Below, one piece after another: positions 1 through 44,038 of a DNA stretch of 50,059 nucleotides. The first letter of the stretch is position 1. Each line of letters begins with the position of its first letter. Under the pieces are notes generated by a model that was not told the DNA's origin, did not search any database, and saw only the letters and a list, made by a program, of their open reading frames with translations. The stretch lies in the IMG/VR virus record IMGVR_UViG_3300011416_000002, positions 1 to 50,059 of that record; one strand, written 5' to 3'. A program made the position numbers and the translations under genes. This DNA comes from a virus (Duplodnaviria > Caudoviricetes).

Positions 1-123
1 CGAGGGTGCCATGCTTCGACCCAGATGAGTGTCCCCTTGCATACTTGAAGTAGCTCTTGGTCTTCATACCGATGTGGAAGCCAATCGATAGGGTCTTGAT
101 CTTCTTCATATGCGCACCATGAA
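1..123. repeat. 123-bp direct terminal repeat, left copy (circular assembly overlap or terminal redundancy)
   Basis: 1-123 is identical to 49937-50059; stop of ORF 106-360 overlaps (ATGA) the start of ORF 49422-50045 across the junction. Confidence 0.97.
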
Positions 124-360
124 ATAAACCCACCGTGATGGGCCTTCCCGTTTCTGTACCAGGGTTACCTGGCCCGCTTCATACGCCCTATAGGCGAGCG
201 CAGCGCGCCGCTCTATGTCCGCGCTACCTGTGCGATCCTGTGCGAGGTAGCCGTTCCAATAGGCCAGCCACTCTCCGAAACGCGCATTCCGTAGCCACTC
301 GGTCAACTGTGGGGTAGAGAGCGCCATTGCAGGCGCTCCCATTGTTGTACGCTTCTCCAT
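106..360 (-). CDS. hypothetical early protein (84 aa)
   Basis: ATG at 360 directly after upstream stop (362); AGGA-type SD; ATGA coupling to next gene. Confidence 0.75.
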   Translation of the reverse strand: MEKRTTMGAPAMALSTPQLTEWLRNARFGEWLAYWNGYLAQDRTGSADIERRAALAYRAYEAGQVTLVQKREGPSRWVYFMVRI

Positions 361-361
361 G

Positions 362-1672
362 TTACTTTCCTGCACTGTCAGCCTCCGGAGGCGTTTCCGT
401 AGAGGCTTCATCTTCAAGGTTGACTGCCATATCGTAGAAGTAGAAGCGGTTGTCAGCATCGTCCCAACCAAAGACGTAGCCTTCCACCGTCACAAGGGTC
501 ATGTCCTTTAGCATCCCTATGTGGGGAAACTCATTGGAGCCGAAGAGCCCCATAGCCTTTGCATAGGCTTTGTACTTGTTGTTGGACAGGATTGGGGTTC
601 CTTTGCTGTCCTCCACATAGAAGGGGTGGCCATCCAGCTCCTCAAGGAGTTCGGCCTCCCCTGGTTGTAGATCGGGGCATTCATCGCTCTTTGTCGATGT
701 GACCTTTCGTCCCCCATTGAAGTAGTGCTTCACGAAGGAGCCTTCTTTGGTGCGCTGCCACCATCCAGTGCGCCCCTCTTTGACGGGCTTCTCTGTCTTG
801 GCGTACCTGGTATTCGTATATCCGCCGTATGTGTTCTTGGAGCCACCAGCACTGACCTTTCGACCGGTCATGTCCTCTACATACTTCAACTGGTCATGGC
901 ATTCGACAGCTTCCTTACAGTAGAAGGACCGAAGCCATGTAACGGGGCACATATCGTCTGGAACGAGGCCCCCAACGGAAGCGACGATAGAAGCGGCTGT
1001 TCCGGTGCGACCATGACCTCCCATACAGAACATTACAATGTTGCTCCCTTCTTCAAGGGACGCGATCTTATCAACGAAAACCCGCCACCATTCCATAGGA
1101 AGTTGTGATGGAATACCATAGTCGGGCCAGTTGATGTGCATGTAGGGGACAGTTGGGGTCTTCCATACGAGGGAGCCGAAGGTTTCTTCCGCGCTCTCAT
1201 TACATGCGAGGATACGATCACCAGCCCCACCAGCTATCTTCGACCATGTCCCCTTGATGAGGCACACCACGAGGTCCCACGCTTTGTCTACATCAAGGGG
1301 AACCTTGAAGGTGACCTCACTCTCTTTGCCGATCCATACGGTGCAACCACCGATCTTCCCAAGGACATGGAGGCCCTTATGGCAATCGCGGCTCCACACT
1401 TCAGTGTGGCTATAGGATGTGGCTGTGGATGTGGTGGCCTTTGGAGGGCCATTCGTGATGACCTCAATCACGTCTGAGGCATCCATGAGGCATATCATCT
1501 TCTCGCGGCATGACCACATAGAGCAGGTTTGCTTGTGGCGATTGCACCATACGGTGTCCGGTAGCTTCTTCATTGGGGTAGTCTCCGTCTTCGGCTTGTT
1601 CATTTTCTGACACACAAGCATACAATGTGCATTGTGGCATTCATCACGATAGATGGGGCACTTACGAAACAT
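362..1672 (-). CDS. protein-tyrosine/dual-specificity (CX5R) phosphatase with Cys-rich N-terminus
   Basis: HINWPDYG (WPD loop) and MFCMGGHGRTGT (C-x5-R P-loop); start set at ATG 1672, which overlaps the upstream TGA (TGATG). Confidence 0.85.
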   Translation of the reverse strand: MFRKCPIYRDECHNAHCMLVCQKMNKPKTETTPMKKLPDTVWCNRHKQTCSMWSCREKMICLMDASDVIEVITNGPPKATTSTATSYSHTEVWSRDCHKGLHVLGKIGGCTVWIGKESEVTFKVPLDVDKAWDLVVCLIKGTWSKIAGGAGDRILACNESAEETFGSLVWKTPTVPYMHINWPDYGIPSQLPMEWWRVFVDKIASLEEGSNIVMFCMGGHGRTGTAASIVASVGGLVPDDMCPVTWLRSFYCKEAVECHDQLKYVEDMTGRKVSAGGSKNTYGGYTNTRYAKTEKPVKEGRTGWWQRTKEGSFVKHYFNGGRKVTSTKSDECPDLQPGEAELLEELDGHPFYVEDSKGTPILSNNKYKAYAKAMGLFGSNEFPHIGMLKDMTLVTVEGYVFGWDDADNRFYFYDMAVNLEDEASTETPPEADSAGK

Positions 1673-3984
1673 CACTCCAATCCCCCATCTTGGTCTTCGT
1701 TGTAGAGCGGCTCCCACTTAGGATAGTGCGGGTCCTCTGGGTTATCCGTGGGTGCTGGAAGGTTGTTCGCATACATGTCCTTTTGCAGCTTCACCTTCAT
1801 ACAGTCGATACATGTGCATTCAGGCAAGTAGTTATTGTATTGCACAAGGCTTTGAGGGGTGACCTCATTGATAGTTACAGGGAGCACCTTCTTGAGTTCC
1901 TTGTAGGTCTCCTTGGTAGGCGGCTCACCCTTCTTGGTGTAGAGCGGCGATATCCCATAAGGGGTCGCCCACTTGCCAACGCCATATAAGGCCGACAGCT
2001 CGCTGGATGTCATACAGTTTGTAGGAATACTCTTGTCGGTGTCATCGCATGCATTAGCGATGGGGTGCCACCTTGAGTAGCCGTCCTTCTTGGTGCAGAG
2101 GCCGCACTTGTAGAGACGGGGTTTCTCTGGTGGCGCTGTGACAACGAACCACTTGTTGTGAACGCTATTGAGAAAGCTATAGGTGTAGTTGGGCACATAG
2201 GCGTGATCGGTATCAGGGTGGTTCATGCACATCTGGTCCTTTGGATGGTAGACAGTTGTGGTGAACGATGCACCCGGCTTCTGACAGTAATTGCATGGGT
2301 AGTAGGAGACTGAGTTGATCTCCTCTTGAAGGGCCGCTTCATGCATATCCTTTATGCGTTGAGCCCGCCGCTCCTCTGCTTTAAGGCGCCTATCAGCACT
2401 CTCATTCCAGCCTTGGTTGATGTGCTTCTCGGCTTCCTTCTGGACCTTGATCTTCGCATCTTGGATAGGCCCGCAGAGGATTTCCATCACCTGAGGGGTG
2501 GCTAGCCCGAACTGAGGAACGGTCACTGAGAGGTCCACATAAGCATCGGCTATGAACTTGGATGTGAGCTTTCCACCATTGTGGACGGAATTGACCGCCT
2601 TATTGTAATAGACCACAACCTTATTCCAATTGATTTCAGTAGGCTCATCCTTGAACACGAATATGGCATCGATCATATTGCGAGTATCCCGCGCTGCATC
2701 TCGCCACTTGGGACCGCCATATGAGCAGCTTCCTACATAATCCCCGTTCTTATCCTTGGCATCAGCCGCGCCCCTCCATGGACCTTCAAAATCCTGGACC
2801 GCTTGATCTATAAGGGATCGCAGTATCTCCATGTTATTGATCGATAACAGACGGGTGAATACCATATCGCGTGAGCCATGGGTTTGTGAGCCCTTCATTA
2901 ATGGCACACGGCTTTTGTCCAGCATTATCCAATCTATTGCTGGAGCGCTCCCATTAATAGAGCCGGGGCCACTGGCATAGAAATGCCTTGCTTCCCCTAT
3001 GCATGCAGCGGTTAGGATGCGCGCCATCAACGATACTCCGGCCACTCGGAGCTTCAATAGGTATGGTTCGTAGCCCCATTCGTTCATGACATGGAGGATC
3101 GACACTGATGCTTGGATAGCGCTTTTTCTATCGCAAAACATGGGCTTTCCAAACATCTTGCTCATGGCCCTGTAATGAACGCGCCGTAGCTTAGGAGGCT
3201 GCTCACTGTCAGGCTCTAAGGCATCTCCTGCGACAGGCTTAGGTGCCTCAGGATCAGTAATCACTGCGAAACCCTTCGCTATTCCATGCACTGTTATATG
3301 CGATGACAATGATACTCCTGGGCAATAGATTGCGGTCCCCTCTTCCATGGTGTTGACGCGGCGTTCCCATAATAGGAGGTCATTCACCTCTTCCTCAGTT
3401 GGGATAACAACGCTGGATACTATGTAGCGTTGTGTGGGCACATAGTTATAGCGCACACGGCCTACCTTAGGGCCATCCCTAAGCTGTACTATGGTAACCG
3501 CTCCACTATTCTCTACGATTTCCATGTATGGGCTGTCCTTTATACCGGCAGCTCCATAAGCGGACATTCTATCAAGATAACTTGTGAGCTTTCCAGGGGT
3601 GCATGGGATTATATATTGCTGTCCCTTACCAGCCGTGGCACCATCATTTTTGTAGGCCCATGTCACAGAACTATCTGTGAGAACACCACTAGCGTTCCCT
3701 GATAGTGTGGGCATGATTAGGACTTCTGCCTTGGGATCGGCCATCTTGGCTTCCATGTACACATCCAAGAGGTCTTTCAATCCTTTGATGGGGCGGCTTT
3801 CTACAAAGCCATGGCGCGGCCTTTCTGGGCATGGACGCGCAAACATCCCATCTAGGGAATAGGTCTCGGGCATGTTGTAAGGGAGGCAGTAGGCCGTGAC
3901 TGTTTCGAACCATTGGGGTAGGACGCCCATTGTGCGCAATGTAGGCAACAAGGCGACGCCCTTGGCTTTCTGTGTCACATGCAT
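1672..3984 (-). CDS. PPDK/PEP-synthase-like ATP-grasp + phosphohistidine swivel phosphotransferase with unknown C-terminal domains
   Basis: QKAKG, FARPC, SGVLT and YMEIVENSGAVTIVQLRDG match PPDK nucleotide-binding motifs; SLSSHITVHGIAKGFAVIT matches the TSHAAVVAR phospho-His motif; GGAG SD before ATG 3984. Confidence 0.75.
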   Translation of the reverse strand: MHVTQKAKGVALLPTLRTMGVLPQWFETVTAYCLPYNMPETYSLDGMFARPCPERPRHGFVESRPIKGLKDLLDVYMEAKMADPKAEVLIMPTLSGNASGVLTDSSVTWAYKNDGATAGKGQQYIIPCTPGKLTSYLDRMSAYGAAGIKDSPYMEIVENSGAVTIVQLRDGPKVGRVRYNYVPTQRYIVSSVVIPTEEEVNDLLLWERRVNTMEEGTAIYCPGVSLSSHITVHGIAKGFAVITDPEAPKPVAGDALEPDSEQPPKLRRVHYRAMSKMFGKPMFCDRKSAIQASVSILHVMNEWGYEPYLLKLRVAGVSLMARILTAACIGEARHFYASGPGSINGSAPAIDWIMLDKSRVPLMKGSQTHGSRDMVFTRLLSINNMEILRSLIDQAVQDFEGPWRGAADAKDKNGDYVGSCSYGGPKWRDAARDTRNMIDAIFVFKDEPTEINWNKVVVYYNKAVNSVHNGGKLTSKFIADAYVDLSVTVPQFGLATPQVMEILCGPIQDAKIKVQKEAEKHINQGWNESADRRLKAEERRAQRIKDMHEAALQEEINSVSYYPCNYCQKPGASFTTTVYHPKDQMCMNHPDTDHAYVPNYTYSFLNSVHNKWFVVTAPPEKPRLYKCGLCTKKDGYSRWHPIANACDDTDKSIPTNCMTSSELSALYGVGKWATPYGISPLYTKKGEPPTKETYKELKKVLPVTINEVTPQSLVQYNNYLPECTCIDCMKVKLQKDMYANNLPAPTDNPEDPHYPKWEPLYNEDQDGGLE

Positions 3985-4105
3985 TGGGAACTCCATTGGG
4001 TTTTGGCACGGGTTTGGCACGGCCCAAGTGTGGCAGATTTGCCGCACTTTTGGCCATGTGGCGCGCTGCCGCGTGCCATTTTGTCGCACGCGCCGGCCGG
4101 CGGCG

Positions 4106-4210: not shown

Positions 4211-4239
4211 AGAAAGGGGAGGCTAGATAGCCTCCCCTT
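4211..4239 (-). terminator. rho-independent terminator
   Basis: AAGGGGAGGCTA/TAGCCTCCCCTT inverted repeat, T-rich on - strand, downstream of 4288 stop. Confidence 0.7.
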
Positions 4240-4287: not shown

Positions 4288-4515
4288 TTACAACCAATCG
4301 TTTTCTTGCGCCATGTCTAGCATGTAGCCAAGCCAGAAGTGTCGGAGGCCACGGGCCCATGCCTCGCGATAGGCGTGCTCACTTTCGGCGGTCTCACGCA
4401 CCCATGCAGGAGGATTGCAGGCATCGTCCTCCTGCATCTCGTTTCCATCCCTATAGCCAGCTTTGCCAGCGCGCTGCACTAGCAAGCTGTTCGATGTTGC
4501 TATGGCCAAGCTCAT
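4288..4515 (-). CDS. hypothetical early protein (75 aa)
   Basis: ATG overlaps upstream TGA (ATGA). Confidence 0.7.
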   Translation of the reverse strand: MSLAIATSNSLLVQRAGKAGYRDGNEMQEDDACNPPAWVRETAESEHAYREAWARGLRHFWLGYMLDMAQENDWL

Positions 4516-4604
4516 GACAGCACCAAATGCAAGAGAGCTCCTGAGACCATGCCGAGCACAAACATGGCGGCCATTAACCATGCGATTTCATCGTTCGGGC
4601 TCAT
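4512..4604 (-). CDS. 30-aa membrane peptide MSPNDEIAWLMAAMFVLGMVSGALLHLVLS
   Basis: read manually; ATGA overlaps at both ends; single hydrophobic helix. Confidence 0.6.
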   Translation of the reverse strand: MSPNDEIAWLMAAMFVLGMVSGALLHLVLS

Positions 4605-22556: not shown

Positions 22557-22932
22557 GCTCCGTAGCCGTTACAACTCCAAGATGTGGCCAGTCCTGATCG
22601 GCTTAACCGACCGGGACGATGGCACCGTTTGGTATCTGTCCACCGAGACCGTGGATGACGAAATCTATATCTCCATCGACACGGAGCGGCCGTTCAGCAA
22701 CCCCACCAAGCATGTCATATACGAGGCCCATGCCGGTCCCATTGTGAACGGCCTTCGCCCCCTGAGGCTCCTCGTCCGTGGAGGATACCTTGGCTTTGAG
22801 ATTGTGGACCGGCCCATCGACATCGACACCCCCCGTATTTACGCTCATATTGGTCCTCCTGCGGGCCGCTCTGAGATCATCCCGGCCGGCTGGTCTATGC
22901 CCGAAGACACCATAGGGTACAGGACGCCATGA
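22549..22932 (+). CDS. hypothetical tail-associated protein
   Basis: ATG overlapping upstream gene end; ATGA coupling to the long fibre. Confidence 0.65.
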   Translation: MSRLRSRYNSKMWPVLIGLTDRDDGTVWYLSTETVDDEIYISIDTERPFSNPTKHVIYEAHAGPIVNGLRPLRLLVRGGYLGFEIVDRPIDIDTPRIYAHIGPPAGRSEIIPAGWSMPEDTIGYRTP

Positions 22933-25900
22933 CCGAATATCTGTTTGCCCGGATCGGGGACATCGACGCTTTCGAAGCTAGCCTCGCGGATCACATCGCT
23001 GATCCGACCGCCGCGCATGCCGCCTCCGCTATATCGGTCACCCCCTCTGGAACTCTGGCCGCTACCGATGTAGCCGCCGCCCTCACTGAAATCCTAGGCG
23101 ATATCGAGACCCACGTTGCCGATGCCTCAGCCGCTCATGCGGCCTCCGCTATCTCCTTCGCGGCTACCGGTTCTATTGCCGCCACCGACGTGCAGACCGC
23201 TATCGCTGAAGTCGCGACCGATTACCTGGCTGCGATATCGGCACTTTCTACCGTTTACCAACCCCTGGACGCGGACCTCACGTCCTGGGCCGCCATCACC
23301 CGAGCTGCCGGCTTCGACACCTTCGTGGCGACCCCGTCCCTGGCGAACCTCGGCTCCCTGCTGACGGACGAAGCGGCCGGCCTTATCACCTTCATGACCA
23401 CCCCGTCCAGCGCCAACCTAGCTACGCTGGTCACCGACGAGACCGGCTCCGGCTTGCTGGTCTTCGCAACCGCGCCGACCCTCACGTCCGTTGTTATCAC
23501 ATCGAACGCCGCCAACTTCCCCAATGGCTGGGGGAACACCCTCAAGCTCACCGCCGCCGACTACCCAGCTATCTGGTTCAACGGTGTCGATCAGGATATC
23601 GGTGTCGTCTATGCCTTCGACAGCTCCACCAACATTTTCTGGCTAGAGGAAGTCACAGCCGGCGCCACCGTCGGGAACGAGTTATTCTGGGACTTCAACA
23701 ACGAGACCTTCTTCACCGGCGACAGCACATGGGACCTCGGCAAGGACATCAAGCCGTGGGATCGGCTCTATGTAAACTCTATTGAGCTTGGCCATGCCAC
23801 CGCGAATACTCTCACCGCTTCCGGCGGAACGCTTTCGATTGAGGGTGTCGCACTTGCCACCGCCGCCTCCGTCTCTGACCACCTTGCCGACGCGACGGAT
23901 GCCCACGATGCATCTGCCATCTCGGTTGCTCCCTCAGGAACTCTAGCCGCTGACGATGTCCAGGAAGCGCTCCTGGAAATCCTCGGGGACATCGAGACCC
24001 ACGTCGCAGATGGAACCGCCGCTCATGCCGCCTCTGCCATCTCGTTCGCCCCTAACGGCTCCATCGCGGCAACCGATGTCCAGTCTGCTATCGTCGAAGT
24101 CCGTGACGAGGCACAGCCGCTCGATGCCGACCTCACCGCTATCGCCGCTCTTACCACCACCGCCTATGGCCGCTCCCTGCTGGAGCTGGCTGATGAGACA
24201 GCTCTTGAGGCGCTTCTCGACACGCTGCCGAACCTCGTCTCAGTCCAGGGACGCACCGTCACCCTTGCTGATGCAGGCGCCAATGCGTTCTTCGGATGGG
24301 ATGACGTTGCAGGGGCATACGAGAACCTAACCGCCGCTGAAGCCCTCGCGATCATCCTGACCGTTGATGGGGCTGGCTCTGGCCTAGACGCTGATCTCCT
24401 CGACGGACAATCGAGCGCCTTCTATGCCACCGCCACGTCGGTATCGGATCACCTTGCCGACGCCGTGGACGCCCATGACGCTTCCGCCATCTCCTCGGTG
24501 GCAGCCGGTAATCTATCGTCTACCGATGTCCAATCGGCGCTGAACGAACTCGACACTGAGAAGCAGCCCCTTGATGCGGACCTCACCGCCATCGCTGCCC
24601 TAACCACCACTGCTTACGGCCGCAGCCTCCTGGAACTGGCGGATGAAACCGCCCTTGAAGCCCTTCTGGATACGCTCCCCAACCTCGTCTCGATCCAGGG
24701 CCTCACCGTAACCTTGGCTGATGCCGGAGCCGACGCTTTCTTCGGTTGGGACGATAGTGCCGGTGCCTATGAGAACCTAACCGCTTCCGAGGCCCTGGAG
24801 ATCATCAAGACTGTCGATGGCGCCGGTAGTGGGCTGGATGCCGACCTGCTCGACGGCAAAACGACGGGCACCTCTGGGAACACGGTCCCTCTCCTCGATG
24901 GCGCCAACACCTGGAGCGCCCTACAGACCTTCACAGCCGGCATCGTGATGACCGGTACGCTGGGTCTCAACATCGCGGTCACCGCCGCTTCTATCGCCTC
25001 GGACCCGGCCTCTGGCTACTTCGGCACCTTTGAAGCCTTCTCTGGGACGAAAATCCAGCTCACCCAGTCCGAGGTCCAGGCAGCCGACGAAAGCGGCGGC
25101 TGGCGCTCCGCCCTCTCCCTGTATCATCAGGATAGCGACGCCACCGACTACGAAGCGATTGCTTACCGCACCATCTCCGATGGCATGAGGGTCGGCGTCT
25201 TCGGCCCCAACGATGGGCTCGGCACCTACTCGACCTCCTCTAAGGATTTCCACGGCGTTACCAGCCAGGTTATCGCTCGCACCGATTGGACCACCCGTGG
25301 TGTCGCCTCCTTCGCCGGTGACAGCGTCCAGTTCGGAGAGGGTGTCTGCCTCAACGAAGTGACGATGTCGAACCCGTCCGGTAGCAGTGCCCAAGCCTCC
25401 CAGATCGCTGGCTGGCTAATCACACTGAGCGGTAAACAGGCCGCCGCCGATGCATCGCACACGGTCCACGGTCTTACGATCATCAACGTCGGCAAGAAGG
25501 CTACCACCGTCCTTGAAGCTTATTCGGCTGGCACTGACGGCGACAATGGCCAGTTCGGCTACGTCCTCAAGCTCGACAATGCCACCGTCGATACCGGCGC
25601 GATCCTTATGCCGGCTTCCGCCGCCACCGACGTTGGAACCCGGATCATCTATGAGACCGGCTCATGGTCTGCCTATGACCGCACCGGGAACGCCTTCACC
25701 TGGGCGCTCGGCTCCGCCAACGTCATAGCGCTGGACGGCGCGACGTTCTTCCCCGCTGGAGATGGTGGCGCTTCGCTCGGCTATGCAACGCTCGCCTGGC
25801 AGAACCTCCATCTGAACACTGGCGGCACCATCAACTGGGAGAACGGTGATGTCGTCATTACCCACTCCTCGAATACCCTTGCCTTCTCAGGCGCCTCCTC

Positions 25901-28139
25901 AGGCTACACCTTCACCCACGCGATCCTCCCGTCCGCTTCAGATGGAGCCGCCATCGGTTCCGCGACCCTCATGTGGTCGGACGCCTTCCTCGCCTCTGGC
26001 GCGGTTATCAACTTCAACAATGGGAACGTCACCCTTACGCACTCGGCGGCCCGGCTCGACTTCACCGGCGCCTCGGTTATGTCCCAAGCTACCAGCGGGA
26101 CTTTCCCGATCTTCATCCTGGAGCGGACCGACACCCATGGCGATGCCGCTGTAGTCGGCTCCCTCCAATTCTACGGCCGTGACAGCGCCGCCGCATCGCA
26201 GTTCTACGCCAGCTTCTATGCCTCCGCAGTCCTCGATAACGCTACCGCAGAAGAGGCGTCGTTCAGTTGGTTCGCCGTAAAGGCAGGTTCCGGCATCGCT
26301 TACATGGACCTCACGGGGACCGCCCTGTCCCCCGGCAGTTCCGACCTATTGGCGCTCGGCACTACGTCCCTGATGTGGTCCGATGCGTTCTTCGCCAGCG
26401 GCGCCGTGTTGAACTTCAATAACGGCAACTCCGTCATCACCCACTCCGCCGCAGTGCTCACCGTCTCCACGGGCGACCTCCGGGTCACCACCGCTGGCAC
26501 CAATGCCGCTTCCGTCGTCACTGTGGGTGGAACTCAGACCCTTACCGCGAAGACCCTCACCTCTCCGACGATCATCACCTCGCCCACGGCTGCCGGCGCT
26601 ACTTGGACCGATCTCGGCACCGTCACAACCGCTGATATCAACGGCGGCACCATCGATGGGACCGTTATCGGAGGCGCCTCTGCCGCCGCCATCACCGGCA
26701 CCACGATTACGGTCAACACCAACCTTGTACCGGACGCTAACGACGGTGCCGGTCTCGGTCTCGCCGCAACCGCGTTCTCAGACCTGTTCCTAGCGTCTGG
26801 AGCGGTCATCGGGTTCAACAACGGGGATGTTACCCTCACGCATGCCGCTAACCTGCTCATCTTCGACGGTGGCACGATCATCACCACCCATACGGCCGCT
26901 TCTTCGGCCTACCATGCGGCCGGCATCACCCCGATTGTCCAGATCAGTGGCACGGACATCAACAACTCGTCTCTCGGCCTAGCCCGCTACAGTGCCGACG
27001 CCAATGGCACCTACATCGCCTTCGGCAAATCGCGCCATGCTACGAACGGCTCCCACACCATCGTCCAGAGCGGCGATGTCATCGCGACCCTGTCGTTCGG
27101 CGGCTCCAACGGGACCGCCTTCGATGCAGCGGCCTATATCATCGCTTCCATCGGGGACACGCCCGGCGCCTCCGCCGATATGCCCGGCCAGCTATCGTTC
27201 TACACAAGCTCCAATGCTTCGGCCACGCCGACTGAGCGCATGCGCATCACGTCGGCCAACCAGATCATGTTGCTCGACACCAGTCTCTACTTCACAGTCT
27301 CGGGCGACGTGCCGCTTCTCAACTTCGACGGCAACGACTATTGGGCGTTTGACCGCTCCGACAATGCTTGGACGTGGATACTCGCCGGCAACAACCTCCT
27401 GGCCCTCTCAGCGACCGGCGTCAACATCAACGCAAGCCAGGTAGCGACGGCCAACAACTGGCTCAAGGTCGATCAGGGAGCGGCTCTCACCGTCGGGACC
27501 AACACCACCTACGCCTTCGCCATCGTGCAAACCGGTACCCACGTCTACACAGTGGGCTCCGGCGGCGGCCACACCTACGAGCAGTCATGGAACGCCCAGC
27601 CCTTCCATATCAACAATCAGGGGAACGACCTGTTCCTTGCAGAGGGCGCGGATGGCGTCCAGTGCGGCGCTCCCACCGGTGGCGACAAGGGCAACGGCAC
27701 TGTGAACGCCAAGGCCGTCTATGACGACAATACGCTTCTGACCTGCATACCGGTTCAGAAAGAGTTCCTGGATAACGGCACCATCGACAAAGCCTACTGG
27801 AACAGTAAGACCCCGGATGCCCCAAAGAAGTTCGATGAGGACAAGAAGGAGCTTCCCGCCGAGCCCATGGAGCATCCTTCCATCGCCATCATGGAGGACC
27901 TCATGGCGGCCGGCTATGACCCCCGGAACCCCACCAAATACTGCGACTACCTCTATGAGCACAACTCCCTGCCAGGCATGCCCACCCGCGCCAACTGGGT
28001 CCACAACGAGCTGTCACAGGGCCAGGTCATGACCCGCCTGTGGCTGGCCGCAGAGCTGCTCGCCGTATCGTACCGGACTTCCCACCAGGAGATGGAAACC
28101 CTGAAAAATGAGGTTGCGCTCCTGAAGGCCAAAGGTTAA
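22929..28139 (+). CDS. long repetitive tail fibre (1736 aa), possible C-terminal chaperone domain
   Basis: AHAASAIS, LDADLTAIA, GSGLDADLLDG, TQTLTAKTLTSP, TERMRITS fibre motifs; C-terminal coiled coil. Confidence 0.85.
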   Translation: MTEYLFARIGDIDAFEASLADHIADPTAAHAASAISVTPSGTLAATDVAAALTEILGDIETHVADASAAHAASAISFAATGSIAATDVQTAIAEVATDYLAAISALSTVYQPLDADLTSWAAITRAAGFDTFVATPSLANLGSLLTDEAAGLITFMTTPSSANLATLVTDETGSGLLVFATAPTLTSVVITSNAANFPNGWGNTLKLTAADYPAIWFNGVDQDIGVVYAFDSSTNIFWLEEVTAGATVGNELFWDFNNETFFTGDSTWDLGKDIKPWDRLYVNSIELGHATANTLTASGGTLSIEGVALATAASVSDHLADATDAHDASAISVAPSGTLAADDVQEALLEILGDIETHVADGTAAHAASAISFAPNGSIAATDVQSAIVEVRDEAQPLDADLTAIAALTTTAYGRSLLELADETALEALLDTLPNLVSVQGRTVTLADAGANAFFGWDDVAGAYENLTAAEALAIILTVDGAGSGLDADLLDGQSSAFYATATSVSDHLADAVDAHDASAISSVAAGNLSSTDVQSALNELDTEKQPLDADLTAIAALTTTAYGRSLLELADETALEALLDTLPNLVSIQGLTVTLADAGADAFFGWDDSAGAYENLTASEALEIIKTVDGAGSGLDADLLDGKTTGTSGNTVPLLDGANTWSALQTFTAGIVMTGTLGLNIAVTAASIASDPASGYFGTFEAFSGTKIQLTQSEVQAADESGGWRSALSLYHQDSDATDYEAIAYRTISDGMRVGVFGPNDGLGTYSTSSKDFHGVTSQVIARTDWTTRGVASFAGDSVQFGEGVCLNEVTMSNPSGSSAQASQIAGWLITLSGKQAAADASHTVHGLTIINVGKKATTVLEAYSAGTDGDNGQFGYVLKLDNATVDTGAILMPASAATDVGTRIIYETGSWSAYDRTGNAFTWALGSANVIALDGATFFPAGDGGASLGYATLAWQNLHLNTGGTINWENGDVVITHSSNTLAFSGASSGYTFTHAILPSASDGAAIGSATLMWSDAFLASGAVINFNNGNVTLTHSAARLDFTGASVMSQATSGTFPIFILERTDTHGDAAVVGSLQFYGRDSAAASQFYASFYASAVLDNATAEEASFSWFAVKAGSGIAYMDLTGTALSPGSSDLLALGTTSLMWSDAFFASGAVLNFNNGNSVITHSAAVLTVSTGDLRVTTAGTNAASVVTVGGTQTLTAKTLTSPTIITSPTAAGATWTDLGTVTTADINGGTIDGTVIGGASAAAITGTTITVNTNLVPDANDGAGLGLAATAFSDLFLASGAVIGFNNGDVTLTHAANLLIFDGGTIITTHTAASSAYHAAGITPIVQISGTDINNSSLGLARYSADANGTYIAFGKSRHATNGSHTIVQSGDVIATLSFGGSNGTAFDAAAYIIASIGDTPGASADMPGQLSFYTSSNASATPTERMRITSANQIMLLDTSLYFTVSGDVPLLNFDGNDYWAFDRSDNAWTWILAGNNLLALSATGVNINASQVATANNWLKVDQGAALTVGTNTTYAFAIVQTGTHVYTVGSGGGHTYEQSWNAQPFHINNQGNDLFLAEGADGVQCGAPTGGDKGNGTVNAKAVYDDNTLLTCIPVQKEFLDNGTIDKAYWNSKTPDAPKKFDEDKKELPAEPMEHPSIAIMEDLMAAGYDPRNPTKYCDYLYEHNSLPGMPTRANWVHNELSQGQVMTRLWLAAELLAVSYRTSHQEMETLKNEVALLKAKG
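24114..24857 (+). repeat. intragenic ~98-codon duplication (24114-24407 / 24564-24857)
   Basis: QPLDADLTAIAALTTTAYGRSLLELADETALEALLDTLPNLVS...GSGLDADLLDG occurs twice, 450 nt apart. Confidence 0.9.
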
Positions 28140-37094: not shown

Positions 37095-37529
37095 TCAGTC
37101 CCCGAAGTTTCCGGCCTTCGGCCACTCCGGGGCGTACTTCACGCTGAAGTCGAACTCTGGCTGTTCCTCTGGAACGGTCTCGACCAGCTTCTGCTTCATG
37201 CGCTCATGGAGCCATCCCTGAATGTTAAAGAGGATGGCGCATGCTACGTCTTCGATGTCATCGCCGGCCTTAGGCTCCCATAGATCACGAGGGGCATCCT
37301 CGTAGGCCAGCCACAACTCGAACGAATGCCGGATGAAGCTCTCCATGTAAACTTCAGGGGGCATCCCACGCTTCCAGTTATCGGAGGACCGCATCGAGCC
37401 ATCGGGCTGTTTCCGATGCTTATGCATGTACTCAGCGAACCGCCTCATAGCCAGCGGGCTTATGAAGCCACGATAGTCGAGCTTGTCTGTGTTGGTGTCG
37501 CGGGTTGCACCCGTCTCAAACTTCCTCAT
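37095..37529 (-). CDS. dATP/dGTP diphosphohydrolase-domain (DUF5664-like) protein
   Basis: FETGATRD..K.DY..ISP.A..R.A..DNWKRGMP...SFIRH. Confidence 0.75.
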   Translation of the reverse strand: MRKFETGATRDTNTDKLDYRGFISPLAMRRFAEYMHKHRKQPDGSMRSSDNWKRGMPPEVYMESFIRHSFELWLAYEDAPRDLWEPKAGDDIEDVACAILFNIQGWLHERMKQKLVETVPEEQPEFDFSVKYAPEWPKAGNFGD

Positions 37530-39633: not shown

Positions 39634-39798
39634 TTAGTCCTTCTTCTTGGTGCGGGGCCGGGTTGACCCCAGCGCCTCAGTGATGCGGCCCCTGTTGACG
39701 CCAAGCCGCTCCGCGAGGTCGGTCCTCCTTAGGTCCGGGAACCTCTTGGCGGTCTGTCTGATCTTCTCCTGCGTAATCTGCTCGTTCACCCTTTTCAT
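39634..39798 (-). CDS. 54-aa helix-turn-helix protein
   Basis: read manually: RTDLAERLGVNRGRITEAL; ATGA-coupled to polA. Confidence 0.65.
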   Translation of the reverse strand: MKRVNEQITQEKIRQTAKRFPDLRRTDLAERLGVNRGRITEALGSTRPRTKKKD

Positions 39799-41414
39799 AG
39801 CTCTATCTCCACTAACCCTTCTGGATTGCTCTTACTCTGCTTGCTCCAGTTGGAGCCGATTGCGGCCTCCACCTGGATGATGCACTCCCGTTCCTTGCCA
39901 TGGATGTCGCGCACCGGGACCTTGACCGACATGCACCCACCCAAGATGTCCAGCACCTCCTTTTCGTGTTCTGTCCTGTATTGGAAAAGCACCGCGTCGT
40001 GAACCTGGGCCAGCACTTCCAGAAGCTCCGGATCATATTGTGAGAGCCTCCACAGCCCAATGTTCAGGATATCCCCCACCCCGCTCTGAGGCCCGAACGC
40101 CAGCGCCTGCTTGTAGGTATGGGTGTCGTTGGGCCGCCCCAGGAGCCGGACTTCCCGATCCAGTGGGTTGTAAATCGGCTTCCGTTCATACACGTCTTGC
40201 AGCCGTTGGTTCTGCCACTCCTTGATGCCAGGGAACGCCTTGAAGAACCTTCCTTGGGCCTCCTCGCACCGGACGATGGGTATCTTGGCGATCATCGCCA
40301 TCCCCCGTGGAGTGAGCCCGTAGTTAGAACCGTGCTGGACCCGCTTCGCCTGGAACCGATAGTCGTGCCCCTCCGTCTTGTCCCAAGGCGGGTAGGTGTT
40401 CTTAGCCAGCGCCTTGTCCTTCTTGAGGTCTCCCGTCCACGGTATTTCTTCACTCCAGACCTCTCGACAGACGTAGGTATGAACGTCCCGCTGATGCGCT
40501 TCGATGTATTTTTCATCCCCCGCGATATACGCAACCAATAGACTTTCAGCGGTCTTCAGGTCCACATAGCACAGCTTCCGACCGCTATCCGGAACGAAGA
40601 TGAACCGATGCTTCTCCGCGATGTTCTGTAGGTTGCCGCCCTCCCCATATGGGTTCTTCGACGAACTCCACCGGCCGGTCCAAGGTGCAGAGACGTTGAA
40701 CCCGCTATGAAAGCGGCCCCTCAGACTAAGCTTAGCGGAGAGGAAACCCCTCTGCTTGTTGAGGTCCCGATGTTCCCGTAGCAGTTCCAGTAGGGAGCTG
40801 TACTTCGGCTTCTCATGGGACAGTTGCTCCAATGCATCATCATCCGTGGTGAGTGAACCGGTTTGCCCGTACTTCTTGGGGAGCTTCATCCTCTCATACA
40901 GAAGGTGGCAGCATTGATCCTTCGACGCGGGCTGGAACCGCATAGGCTTCAAGCGTGGCATCCCGCAGCGCTCACACCGCATCTCGTCCTGGCTCACAGC
41001 CGGCTCACCAACGGCGGTCCTGGGCCACTTATGGCGCTGCTCTTTCCCGGTCTTCGTCAGCTTCTCCGACTTGGGACAAAAGCCCGTTTCGAGTTCGACG
41101 CCATCCCAGAACTTGATGGTCCATTCATTCGCCTGGATAGCATCGGCGGTCTTCTCCAGGCTCTCGGTGACATCCTTCAGGGCAAGCTTCTGGCCCACCG
41201 TATCGACCTTGACCCCGCGAATACCCATGATGAAAGCCGGCGTCTGTTGCGCCAGGTTCCACTTGTAGGTCCGCACTTGGTTTGCGTTGAGCCTGGGTCT
41301 CAGGCGATTGAAGATTTCAAGGGTGCCGGTCGCATCGAGGCACGAATAGGCCGCGAACTTGGCTTCCCCGTGAAGCTCCTGGGCCTTCTCCAGGCCCACC
41401 GTGTTGAATTTCAT
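39795..41414 (-). CDS. polA: family A DNA polymerase, C-terminal part (ExoIII + polymerase domain)
   Basis: YSCLD (ExoIII), TGRWSS, NLQNI, motif A YVDLKTAE, motif B RFQAKRVQHGSNYG, motif C VHD. Confidence 0.93.
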   Translation of the reverse strand: MKFNTVGLEKAQELHGEAKFAAYSCLDATGTLEIFNRLRPRLNANQVRTYKWNLAQQTPAFIMGIRGVKVDTVGQKLALKDVTESLEKTADAIQANEWTIKFWDGVELETGFCPKSEKLTKTGKEQRHKWPRTAVGEPAVSQDEMRCERCGMPRLKPMRFQPASKDQCCHLLYERMKLPKKYGQTGSLTTDDDALEQLSHEKPKYSSLLELLREHRDLNKQRGFLSAKLSLRGRFHSGFNVSAPWTGRWSSSKNPYGEGGNLQNIAEKHRFIFVPDSGRKLCYVDLKTAESLLVAYIAGDEKYIEAHQRDVHTYVCREVWSEEIPWTGDLKKDKALAKNTYPPWDKTEGHDYRFQAKRVQHGSNYGLTPRGMAMIAKIPIVRCEEAQGRFFKAFPGIKEWQNQRLQDVYERKPIYNPLDREVRLLGRPNDTHTYKQALAFGPQSGVGDILNIGLWRLSQYDPELLEVLAQVHDAVLFQYRTEHEKEVLDILGGCMSVKVPVRDIHGKERECIIQVEAAIGSNWSKQSKSNPEGLVEIEL

Positions 41415-42654: not shown

Positions 42655-42892
42655 CTGCTTTGTCCTTCTGTTTGAACACTCTGAAAGCGTAGGCCATTAC
42701 TTCAAGCTCTACCCTGTCCCCGACCTTAACATCTTCCGGCTTTAGCCCCGTTGCATGGAGCGCGGCCTTCGATACCAAGATGTTCCCTAGGTGATGAAAC
42801 AGCCTTGGACTGATAGGCCGGGCCAAGATGGTGACAAGCCCTCGCTGGTTCGTTTCATGATGCTTGATGACACATGGGATGTTGTCACTCAT
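42620..42892 (-). CDS. hypothetical protein
   Basis: GAGGAG SD; overlaps upstream stop. Confidence 0.6.
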   Translation of the reverse strand: MSDNIPCVIKHHETNQRGLVTILARPISPRLFHHLGNILVSKAALHATGLKPEDVKVGDRVELEVMAYAFRVFKQKDKADDATDEEEANE

Positions 42893-44000
42893 CGCGCTTA
42901 TCTCCTCTCTGCTTCTGCCTTAGGCCGCTTTCGCCGGCCCAATGCTTCCATGAGCCTTGCCGGCTGTAGGAATTTCCCATGAACTGTAGGCTCGCCGGTA
43001 GCTCCGGGTAAAGAGCTTTGTGAAGCAACCGCAGATCGTGGCAGTAATTGCGGGGCCTTATGTTCATCTTCTGTAGGAGCCAGGGCACATCATAGGCGCC
43101 GAAGTTCTGTCCCAGCTTCGGGACATCGTTCTCCAGGATCGCCTTGCAGGCCATCCAAGCCCGCTTCTCCTTGGCCGCGCTATACCAGTAGGATGCGTTG
43201 AGGTTGTCCATCGAGATGAAGGGGACATACATCGCCCGCTCCTCTGAGGTCGCGAACGCTATACCCCGTACCATTCTTGGTACGAGCGCATTATCAGGGC
43301 TCCACCATGTCTCGATGTCGGCACTCAGTAGAGGCGCCTTCGCCGCCTCATCCACGAAGGCTTCCACTTCCTCGATGGTCGGCGCAATGCTCAGGAGCCG
43401 CTTCGGAAGCTCTATGTGCTTCCCGATTTCGGCCTCGGCCAGCGCCCTATTGAGGTCCCCGATGAACACATGGAACAGGCTGTACTTACGCCGGACCATG
43501 TCGGGGTCGAAGATGGGGAAGAACTTCACCCCGAAGAACAGCCGCTCTCCCATGAAGGGCTGGCCCCTCAGGTTGCTGATGTTGCCACCGGGCTTGAACG
43601 CGGCCACCGCATTGGTGCCAAGCGGGACGACCACAGTGGGGTTCGCCGCTTCGATTTCGGCCTTCACCCGCGCAAGCGATGCCTCATGATAGGCGGGCCA
43701 CTCGGAGCCCCGGCGCCGCTTCTCCCGCACAATGTCGTCCCCCTCGAACTTCTCATCATAGACATAGGTGAGGAGGCAGTCGTAGCGGTCTATCGAGGCG
43801 GCTCTCATGCCGCTCTCAAGGATGATCCCAGTAGGACCCACGAAGGGCGCGTTCTTCTCGCACTCCCACGCCTGCGGGGCGTCACCGATGAAGGCCAGCT
43901 TACAAGGCGCTCTACGCGGGAAGTCGGCCGGGACCTTCCGACCGTACTCCTCGGAGCGGTTCTCAAAGCGGGGCTTTCTTACTCTTGTGAAGGTAGCCAT
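42885..44000 (-). CDS. DNA polymerase N-terminal part: family-4-like uracil-DNA glycosylase domain + 3'-5' exonuclease (ExoI, ExoII)
   Basis: IGDAP..E..PFVG.TG, VVPLG..A, LRG (UDG); LSADIET (ExoI), GQNFGAYD (ExoII), HD..L.H...PELP.SL. Confidence 0.85.
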   Translation of the reverse strand: MATFTRVRKPRFENRSEEYGRKVPADFPRRAPCKLAFIGDAPQAWECEKNAPFVGPTGIILESGMRAASIDRYDCLLTYVYDEKFEGDDIVREKRRRGSEWPAYHEASLARVKAEIEAANPTVVVPLGTNAVAAFKPGGNISNLRGQPFMGERLFFGVKFFPIFDPDMVRRKYSLFHVFIGDLNRALAEAEIGKHIELPKRLLSIAPTIEEVEAFVDEAAKAPLLSADIETWWSPDNALVPRMVRGIAFATSEERAMYVPFISMDNLNASYWYSAAKEKRAWMACKAILENDVPKLGQNFGAYDVPWLLQKMNIRPRNYCHDLRLLHKALYPELPASLQFMGNSYSRQGSWKHWAGESGLRQKQRGDKRDE

Positions 44001-44001
44001 G

Positions 44002-44038
44002 AAAAAGCCGGGGACCGCCCATGCCAAGCGGTCCCCGG
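44002..44038 (-). terminator. rho-independent terminator-like hairpin abutting ATG 44000
   Basis: CCGGGGACCGC/GCGGTCCCCGG stem then CTTTTT on - strand. Confidence 0.6.

Follow-up and report, generated by a model that had tools for sequence, protein, structure and literature searches.

Enzymes that combine an ATP-grasp domain with a swivel domain carrying a phosphorylatable histidine take on new substrates by swapping the acceptor domain, and members that act on pyruvate, rifampin, glucans, and phenols are known. In pyruvate, phosphate dikinase (PPDK) and phosphoenolpyruvate (PEP) synthase the ATP-grasp domain is followed by the His domain and then by the acceptor. The order is different in rifampin phosphotransferase (RPH), where the His domain is at the C-terminus. 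HpeHI and phenylphosphate synthase are two-component kinases of aromatic substrates that belong to a catabolic context. To our knowledge, there is one well-known case in which a PPDK-type dikinase works alongside a dual-specificity Cys phosphatase, namely glucan, water dikinase with SEX4, LSF2, or laforin, a eukaryotic system in which both activities take part in a productive cycle on one substrate. Here we describe two adjacent genes from the virus record IMGVR_UViG_3300011416_000002, a complete record of 50,059 bp with direct terminal repeats that was analyzed as a whole and is referred to below as the window. The first gene encodes a dikinase-like protein, P0001, and the second a predicted Cys phosphatase, P0002. 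We consider it moderately probable that P0001 is a three-domain phosphotransferase of the dikinase type and that P0002 is a co-translated Cys phosphatase of the same pathway.

The closest ATP-grasp match to P0001 is RPH-Lm (5hv1), which would follow the same logic of an ATP-grasp domain, a swivel His, and an acceptor other than the pyruvate-binding domain. However, the ATP-grasp region of RPH-Lm is about twice as long (residues 15-315 of the chain versus 1-173 of the P0001 model), the acceptor domains are unrelated, and RPH has no partner phosphatase. PPDK and PEP synthase have the same domain order as P0001 and contain matching motifs (GN(D/M)G..(A/S)G, Q-x-R, and (S/T)-H). Unlike these enzymes, P0001 is much smaller, has no TIM barrel, and has no Pfam match to any of the three domains. 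The glucan dikinase system uses carbohydrate-binding modules, whereas Pfam detected none in P0001 or P0002, and no link to glucan was seen in the phage loci. The dikinase parts of HpeHI and phenylphosphate synthase are on separate proteins, like those of a split phage form that we describe below. The initial annotation of this locus had likened the pair to gp0.7 of phage T7, which is made early and reprograms the host through phosphorylation; gp0.7 is a Ser/Thr protein kinase of unrelated fold and has no partner phosphatase.

Conserved core and predicted fold of P0001

Both genes are on the minus strand, and the stop codon of the first overlaps the start codon of the second. The two open reading frames (ORFs), their overlap, and the coordinates of His229, the WPD loop, and the C-x5-R loop were found in the translations exactly where the initial annotation had put them. 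The features of the two genes are as follows.

1675..3984, minus strand: dikinase-like phosphotransferase P0001, whole ORF of 770 aa, translated from ATG 3984; stop codon at 1672-1674
3445..3984, minus strand: predicted compact ATP-grasp nucleotide-binding domain, about residues 1-180, with K6, R50, E87, E155, Q167, and R169 (from the model, structure searches, and residue counts)
3190..3432, minus strand: small alpha/beta domain, about residues 185-265, with invariant His229, codon 3298-3300 (from models and alignment)
2455..3147, minus strand: helical domain and likely acceptor site, about residues 280-510, with invariant E331, R333, R372, G423, G424, W427, H468, and K476 (from the model, alignment, and hhalign)
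1675..2454, minus strand: lineage-specific C-terminal extension, residues 511-770, with three CxxC motifs at residues 564, 627, and 725 (from the end of the family core at about 480-510 and low model confidence)
1670..1674, minus strand: TGATG overlap of the P0001 stop and P0002 start codons, where the sequence reads GGAGTGATGTTT (TGA 1674-1672, ATG 1672-1670)
365..1672, minus strand: Cys phosphatase P0002, whole ORF of 436 aa, from translation; stop codon at 362-364
803..1417, minus strand: catalytic core of the protein tyrosine phosphatase/dual-specificity phosphatase (PTP/DSP) type, residues 86-290, with C97, D184 of the WPD loop, C216-x5-R222, E257, and Q261 (from an alignment of 36 homologues)
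1121-1129, minus strand: WPD loop, W182-P-D184 (computed from the translation)
1007-1027, minus strand: P-loop, C216..R222, CMGGHGR (computed from the translation)

P0001 had no Pfam match of any kind at E<=0.1 and no match by phmmer in the PDB. A word-indexed search identified 149 homologous proteins at E<=1e-3, none of which has a Pfam domain in the common core, and a profile search of 1.84 billion cluster representatives (clusters at 50% identity) returned 2164 clusters at E<=1e-3 and 967 at E<=1e-30. The core common to the family is formed by residues 1 to about 480-510, and the N- and C-terminal extensions differ among members. Within this core K6 is kept in 103 of the 105 aligned homologues, and R50, E87, E155, Q167, R169, H229, E331, R333, R372, G423, G424, W427, H468, and K476 are kept in all 105. 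This includes the residues that had been picked by eye in the initial annotation (K6, R50, E155, Q167, R169, and H229), a choice that the larger family bears out.

We modeled P0001 with AF2 on the family alignment. The mean predicted confidence score (pLDDT) was above 90 in most 10-residue blocks of residues 1-510, and the model was unreliable from about residue 590, with most of residues 593-770 below 50. When the model was compared by VIA-align with 48,161 PDB representative chains, the top match was rifampin phosphotransferase 5hv1_A (Z 10.9, root-mean-square deviation 3.2, 159 residues aligned, 17% identity, model residues 1-173). Other ATP-grasp enzymes were found at Z 7-10, and maize PPDK (1vbg) and the kinase subunit HpeI (9goj) both at Z 6.8. 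Foldseek returned D-Ala-D-Ala ligases (Ddl), PPDK 1dik, and RPH 5hv1 at E of about 1e-5 (2.6e-5 for 1dik and about 3e-5 for 5hv1). The ATP-grasp fold that had been proposed from motifs alone was thus recovered by both structure searches, and the N-terminus of P0001 is predicted to be a compact ATP-grasp domain about half the length of that in RPH. The match at the sequence level is weak, but canonical PPDK_N proteins have GNMGEDSGSG and ILQSRVG where the family has its motifs GNDGATAG and VQLRDG (sub-profile hhalign E 0.012); in PPDK, these segments contain the glycine-rich loop and the Gln/Arg pair of the ATP site.

His229 is located at the start of a helix in the model of the second domain, which reached a pLDDT of 92 when modeled in isolation. 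The preceding residue, S228, is kept in 92 of 105 homologues, and the family consensus around it, GGSLxSHxAVHxxxxGxPV, resembles the PEP-utiliser signature GGxTSHAAVVAR..xxP.VVG. The sole PDB match of the family profile was the PEP-utiliser-type C-terminal domain of pyruvate kinase 2e28 (E=1), with His aligned on His. Sub-profile hhalign of this domain with the PEP-utiliser domain also placed His on His, with E 0.003 over 51 columns. These alignments suggest that the His229 domain is likely a PEP-utiliser (PF00391) swivel domain.

Several results weigh against a dikinase-type assignment of P0001 and its pairing with a phosphatase. The Pfam models for PPDK_N (PF01326) and PEP-utilizers gave no match to P0001 at E<=1. 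Whole-profile hhalign of the P0001 family with canonical phage PPDK-like proteins matched only 22 columns at the His motif (His on His, E 0.12), and hhalign of single sequences with canonical dikinases gave nothing beyond that motif. Searches with the His domain on its own gave no Foldseek match at E<=0.001 (best E 0.5), and VIA placed none of the 48,161 chains at Z>=5 (best Z 3.5); Enzyme I 2wqd and residues 480-576 of 2e28 (Z 3.2 each) and EI-Ntr (Z 3.1) were tied with unrelated folds. Of the His swivel domain named in the initial annotation, the histidine therefore stands, being invariant and aligned on its counterpart, whereas the swivel fold found little backing in structure comparison. 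The equation of K6, R50, E155, Q167, and R169 with the PPDK catalytic set comes from motif comparison and the PPDK literature rather than from residue-level superposition. The third domain was modeled with high confidence, and its closest structures are generic helical bundles (G-protein-coupled receptors and a designed protein, Z<=8.9). Moreover, if the kinase and the phosphatase had the same site of action, ATP would be wasted in a cycle, unless the two were kept apart by time, place, or position on the substrate.

Some of these observations would also fit an ATP-grasp ligase or a simple ADP-forming kinase that makes no phosphohistidine, with His229 serving a structural role or as a general base. 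Many structural neighbors of the model are ligases or related enzymes (Ddl ligases, synapsin, and succinyl-CoA synthetase), and the swivel-domain assignment is statistically weak. By contrast, the closest neighbor of all is of the dikinase type, the PPDK_N-type and GGxxSH-type motifs are invariant, and the partner of the helical domain in the split form is a bona fide PPDK_N plus PEP-utilizers protein. We consider this alternative unlikely.

The C-terminal extension of P0001 is one of many in the family that contain CxxC motifs. Two or more such motifs were found in 31 of the 105 dikinase-like homologues, and CxxC-rich extensions also occur in 11 of the 36 phosphatase homologues. The frequency of these extensions on both proteins hints at a macromolecular partner. 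At the other end, some members of the family (P0060, P0072, P0078, and P0086) have an N-terminal left-handed beta-helix (hexapeptide) domain that resembles the C-terminal domain of sugar-nucleotide pyrophosphorylases.

The phosphatase P0002 and its linkage to P0001

The Pfam matches of P0002 were all to phosphatase families and all below gathering thresholds (Tc-R-P, 21.7 versus 27 bits; PTP-SAK, 21.2 versus 27 bits; Y_phosphatase, 19.1 versus 20.9 bits), with E-values of 3e-4 to 1e-3. The closest PDB match by phmmer was the archaeal-type ShufPTP (9e9l; E 1.2e-4). The small archaeal-type PTPs, such as SsoPTP and ShufPTP, and the Pfam families PTP-SAK and Tc-R-P are the closest matches to P0002 overall (E 1.2e-4 to 3e-4). 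P0002 and these PTPs have in common the P-loop CxGGxGR(T/S)GT and a downstream AVExxxQ motif. P0002 differs from them by an additional invariant Cys (C97), a near-invariant Cys (C252), and long, variable extensions at both ends outside residues 86-290.

To examine conservation we aligned 36 phosphatase homologues taken from loci linked to P0001 relatives; an alignment of 39 sequences was also made. C97, D184, W196, C216, G221, R222, G224, E257, and Q261 are invariant in 36 of 36 homologues, and W182 is at least 90% conserved. P0002 is thus predicted to be a catalytically complete Cys phosphatase with the nucleophile, the P-loop Arg, the general acid, and the Gln found in hydrolytically competent PTPs. 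The intact WPD and C-x5-R loops had been read from the sequence in the initial annotation, and the invariance of C216, R222, and D184 agrees with that reading.

The best PHROG match of P0002 (17568) is labelled "thymidylate synthase", and the same label is found in Stenotrophomonas phage GenBank records, including that of DLP_3 gp141 (L054:5644-6420). This label is probably an annotation error that is spreading among these PTPs, because Pfam scans of the window, RcZahn, and PG28 proteins gave phosphatase families only (DLP_3 gp141 was not among the proteins scanned).

The initial annotation had named co-occurrence of the two genes in phage databases as a check, and the two do occur together. 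A relative of P0002 was found by tblastn in 45 of the 47 viral loci that contain a relative of P0001. ORF clustering adds a phosphatase at locus L035, so that at least 46 of 47 loci have one; the remaining locus, L014, ends 205 nt past the match. Our crude ORF caller found both genes in 42 sets (41 loci and the window). In 38 of these the phosphatase is downstream on the same strand, with 33 of the 38 pairs overlapping or no more than 60 nt apart and 10 having an exact 4-nt overlap. In the other arrangements the phosphatase is just upstream (three loci) or present as two copies upstream on the opposite strand (one locus). The podovirus genome MW202742 in GenBank contains the same pair with a 26-nt overlap. 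A pattern scan of the genomes of 185,579 species identified four bacterial loci (two in Acidobacteria, one in Chloroflexi, and one in Salinarimonas), all four with the phosphatase downstream.

Across the 47 loci and the window, the pair has no conserved third partner, the next-best cluster being present in only 5 of these 48 sets. The larger neighbors are a mixture of lectin/BACON, integrase, AAA, RNA ligase, C5 methylase, and unassigned ORFs. The contigs that carry the pair range from 7 to 448 kb, and on them it sits among small ORFs without assigned function. The pair is a mobile, self-contained two-gene module carried by hundreds of phages. A complex prediction with residues 1-510 of P0001 and residues 86-290 of P0002 returned a score of 0.00, which gives no verdict either way on binding.

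One carrier, the 117-kb IMG/VR contig L020, has a T4 Rnl1-type RNA ligase gene (L020:3736-4836, plus strand) directly upstream of the pair and tightly packed with it, and this ligase gene is itself preceded by a sigma-factor-like gene. In phage T4, tRNAs cleaved by anticodon nucleases of the host are repaired by a kinase, a phosphatase, and a ligase acting together. The pair could heal RNA ends in the manner of T4 Pnkp, with the dikinase phosphorylating a 5'-OH, the phosphatase removing 2',3'-cyclic or 3' phosphates, and a ligase resealing the cleaved tRNAs. The ligase beside the pair is well matched (Pfam RNA_lig_T4_1, E 5e-19; PHROG 562, E 7e-52). However, an RNA ligase is within 5 kb of the pair in only 1 of the 47 loci. 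A search of the window genome gave no RNA ligase, but the controls of that search gave no signal either. We regard RNA end-healing as very unlikely.

The helical domain and the split module of cultured phages

The initial annotation had stated that P0001 has no pyruvate-binding TIM barrel (PF02896), and this is in line with both the Pfam scan, which gave no match, and the model, in which residues 280-510 are helical. This region contains the motifs ExRH, YGGxxW, and HNGGxxxNK and had no sequence relative in the PDB. An ESM Atlas search with residues 265-520 was discarded as it gave no usable feature match, and its structure rows had TM<0.5 and came from an Atlas model with a pLDDT of 0.36.

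Searching with P0002 by tblastn led us to Rhodobacter phage RcZahn, Vibrio phage PG28, and Stenotrophomonas phage DLP_3. These phages have in common a string of genes that starts with a "pyruvate phosphate dikinase" of 647-734 aa and one to three small genes. It continues with a PTP, a hypothetical protein of 326-357 aa, a second PTP, and another hypothetical protein, and DNA polymerase I is encoded somewhat downstream. The string corresponds to gp6-gp11 in RcZahn and gp135-141 in DLP_3. Pfam identified PPDK_N and PEP-utilizers domains in the "PPDK" proteins of RcZahn and PG28 and DSP/PTP domains in both PTPs of each phage. The small genes between the "PPDK" gene and the first PTP gene (L048:2932-3402 and L049:2391-2696) have weak matches to the CsrA family (E 2.6e-6 and 4e-4), and the "PPDK" proteins themselves (L048:872-2926 and L049:170-2371) end in a region of 170-210 aa without a Pfam family.

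The hypothetical protein between the two PTPs is a relative of the helical domain of P0001. Alignment of this domain by hhalign gave 96.8% (E 2e-10) with the single sequence of RcZahn gp10 and 97.6% (E 3.1e-12, 120 columns) with a 34-member alignment of the gp10 family. An hhalign comparison with RcZahn gp12 gave no match. The same invariant motifs are found on both sides (ExRH, YGGxxW, and HNxGxxxNK). The gp10 family, in which Pfam recognizes no domain, numbers 703 members at E<=1e-3, its profile gave only chance-level rows in the PDB (E>=0.19), and PADLOC returned for gp10 only a chance-level Cas10 row. By tblastn, relatives of gp10 are encoded in 40 GenBank records of cultured phages (33 of Vibrio, 4 of Stenotrophomonas, 2 of Rhizobium, and 1 of Rhodobacter).

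The fused and split forms appear to be one system, because the helical domain is homologous to gp10, which sits between PTPs downstream of a PPDK_N plus PEP-utilizers protein. In the split form the canonical nucleotide-binding and His domains are on a separate protein of 650-735 aa, the helical protein of 326-357 aa is free, and there are two PTPs related to P0002. In the fused form all parts other than the phosphatase are in one protein, with highly divergent ATP-grasp and His parts. The neighborhood logic is the same in both. P0001 is thus best described, from these comparisons, as an apparently divergent, minimal ATP-grasp and His unit fused to a domain that elsewhere is encoded beside a canonical dikinase. 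The canonical nature of the split-form partner lends independent support to the dikinase reading of P0001 and makes the helical domain a likely acceptor site.

Vibriophage relatives of the split form have been treated as true PPDK in the available text of two reports (PMC12038007; PMC10141217), in the first of which ORF98 of vibriophage J26 is modeled with a TIM-barrel PEP site. The GenBank annotations "pyruvate phosphate dikinase" would likewise support a genuine PPDK, that is, an auxiliary metabolic gene of central carbon metabolism. Yet neither RcZahn gp6 nor the PG28 protein has a Pfam match at E<=0.01 to PEP-utilizers_C (the TIM barrel), and the corresponding part of P0001 is helical. The constant PTP and gp10-like partners have no place in PEP/pyruvate metabolism. 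The TIM-barrel and PEP-docking model of J26 thus finds no support in the Pfam scans of its RcZahn and PG28 homologues, and a genuine PPDK seems extremely improbable. Claims that phage "PPDK" is an auxiliary metabolic gene probably need to be revised, with the gene assigned to a multi-protein phosphotransfer system.

The domain and motif assignments, together with the relation of the fused to the split form, lead us to propose a dikinase-type mechanism. The minimal ATP-grasp domain of P0001 would bind ATP and load a phosphoryl (or pyrophosphoryl) group onto His229. On its small mobile domain, His229 would then pass the phosphoryl group to a substrate held in the helical ExRH/YGGxxW/HNGG domain, which would take the place that is occupied in PPDK by the pyruvate-binding barrel and in RPH by the rifampin-binding domain. 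P0002, made from the same message, would be a phosphomonoesterase of the same pathway, acting on the product of P0001 or on a neighboring phosphate of the same substrate. We infer the His relay, the direction of transfer, and the common substrate from folds, motifs, and the fused/split relation. The invariant residues of the putative acceptor site are mostly basic or polar and would thus suit an anionic ligand. With hosts as diverse as Proteobacteria, Acidobacteria, and Chloroflexi, the target has to be one that many bacteria have in common. We would guess that the substrate is some conserved anionic molecule of the cell (a nucleotide, nucleic acid, or phosphosugar, for example) and that the role lies in host takeover or counter-defence.

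A search of the literature, covering main texts without supplements, found no paper on the fused family or on a tested function of phage modules with PPDK-like and PTP proteins. The use of ATP-grasp and swivel-His parts with a swapped acceptor was already known. We found no earlier description of the acceptor domain seen here, of the fused minimal architecture, of the obligatory Cys-phosphatase partner, or of the fused form being equivalent to the split one. Relatives have been deposited in GenBank and mentioned in publications, where they figure as a presumed metabolic gene rather than a characterized system. With approximately 1,000 clusters at 50% identity and a kinase part that has no Pfam or PHROG family, the P0001 family appears to represent a large-scale acceptor swap in viruses. 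The presence of the split form in cultured Vibrio, Stenotrophomonas, Rhizobium, and Rhodobacter phages makes this system experimentally accessible.

Genome setting and possible roles of the pair

The plus strand of the window contains terminase, portal, capsid, and tail genes. A block of minus-strand genes encodes an exonuclease, a split family-A DNA polymerase, and a metallophosphoesterase. The terminal repeats suggest that the genome is circularly permuted. Provided that this is so, the arrangement suggests that the dikinase-like/phosphatase pair is the first unit of the leftward replication/early block. P0001 has its own ribosome-binding site:

3991..3994, minus strand: GGAG ribosome-binding site, 6 nt upstream of ATG 3984 (read from the sequence)

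An upstream GTG would give an alternative P0001 of 805 aa. We favored ATG 3984 because in many homologues the TQKA(R/K)G motif comes only 1-3 residues after the start. At 4211-4237 on the minus strand, just upstream of the P0001 gene, there is a perfect 10-bp inverted repeat (GGGGAGGCTA .. TAGCCTCCCC) followed by the T-rich tail TTTCTCATT. This hairpin looks like an intrinsic terminator ending the preceding small minus-strand ORF at 4291-4581; it was spotted by eye, and a consensus terminator scan did not list it. The GC content of the two genes (window positions 1-4000) is 0.51-0.53, whereas most other 2-kb segments are at 0.57-0.64 and the segment at the far end is at 0.54. The low GC content fits a recent acquisition of the two-gene cassette.

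This setting bears on the question of what the pair does. It could be a counter-defence or takeover device that phosphorylates or dephosphorylates a host nucleotide immune signal, a metabolite derived from NAD, a protein, or a glycan early in infection. We hold this possibility only tentatively. It is consistent with the position of the pair at the head of the leftward block, behind its own ribosome-binding site and the hairpin with its T-rich tail, and with a GC content of the kind expected for a recently acquired accessory cassette. The movement of a self-contained two-gene cassette among very different phages and its near absence from bacteria, with only the four loci noted above, also agree with this role. 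In addition, the Pfam family PTP-NADK, a weak match of an RcZahn PTP, shows that DSP-type phosphatases pair with nucleotide kinases. On the other hand, PADLOC had no match for either P0001 or P0002, no defence system, signal, or host target can be inferred, and the genes of the split form sit among replication genes rather than typical anti-defence genes.

That same location among replication genes would suit a role in DNA or deoxynucleotide modification, in which the dikinase would activate a hydroxyl of a nucleotide or of DNA by converting it to a phosphate or pyrophosphate ester, with the phosphatase removing phosphates that are left over or that compete. The split-form genes adjoin DNA polymerase I and, in PG28, also a dCTP deaminase. 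The CxxC-rich extensions counted above would suit a macromolecular, possibly nucleic-acid substrate, and the mostly basic or polar residues of the putative acceptor site also count in favor of this role. DNA of Stenotrophomonas phage DLP3 resisted 15 of 15 restriction enzymes, and the available text of that report did not determine the type of modification (PMC7326821). Similarly, DLP5 DNA was cut by only 4 of 36 enzymes, again with the type not determined in the available text (PMC5834331). The restriction resistance of these two DNAs is a correlation only, and the same texts name other candidate genes, a glycosyltransferase in DLP3 (PMC7326821) and a SAM (S-adenosylmethionine) methyltransferase and sugar-nucleotide enzymes in DLP5 (PMC5834331). 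Among the neighbors of the pair in the 47 loci there is no conserved base-modifying enzyme, and no thymidylate-synthase-like gene or glycosyltransferase was found among the window ORFs scanned. The "thymidylate synthase" label on the PTPs has no support in the Pfam scans. We are doubtful of a modification role on this evidence. Two further sources were considered and put aside. PMC13326640, which seemed to trace DLP3 DNA modification to another gene cluster, was rejected since the phage called DLP3 there infects Acinetobacter and is distinct from the Stenotrophomonas phage, and NARP3, as described in the available part of PMC13464706, has unrelated chemistry.

Taken at their broadest, the results raise the possibility, which at present we would put forward as speculative, that the fused and split forms together are a widespread phage system. 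In it a phosphohistidine dikinase, a new catalytic domain, and Cys phosphatases would act on a universal bacterial molecule, either a nucleotide-type signal or DNA/deoxynucleotide. Were the target a nucleotide-type immune or metabolic signal, the system would be a new class of counter-defence enzymology. Were it DNA or a deoxynucleotide, the system would carry out hypermodification via a (pyro)phosphorylated intermediate and could explain the DNA modification of DLP3 and DLP5. Knowing the substrate would thus bring to light a new mechanism of counter-defence or else a new chemistry of DNA modification.

Elsewhere in the window, the family-A DNA polymerase is apparently split between two minus-strand ORFs at 42888-44027 and 39798-41414, with approximately 1.4 kb of small ORFs between them. 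The first part (380 aa) contains uracil-DNA-glycosylase-superfamily and 3'-5' exonuclease domains and the second (539 aa) the polymerase domain. A 144-aa ORF at 37098-37529 on the minus strand has a sub-threshold Pfam match to dGTP_diPhyd_N (E 0.007, 16.8 bits versus a cut-off of 27). This match may be a chance one and is the sole hint of nucleotide-pool editing in the window. The structural gene block on the plus strand includes a 1736-aa ORF at 22929-28136.

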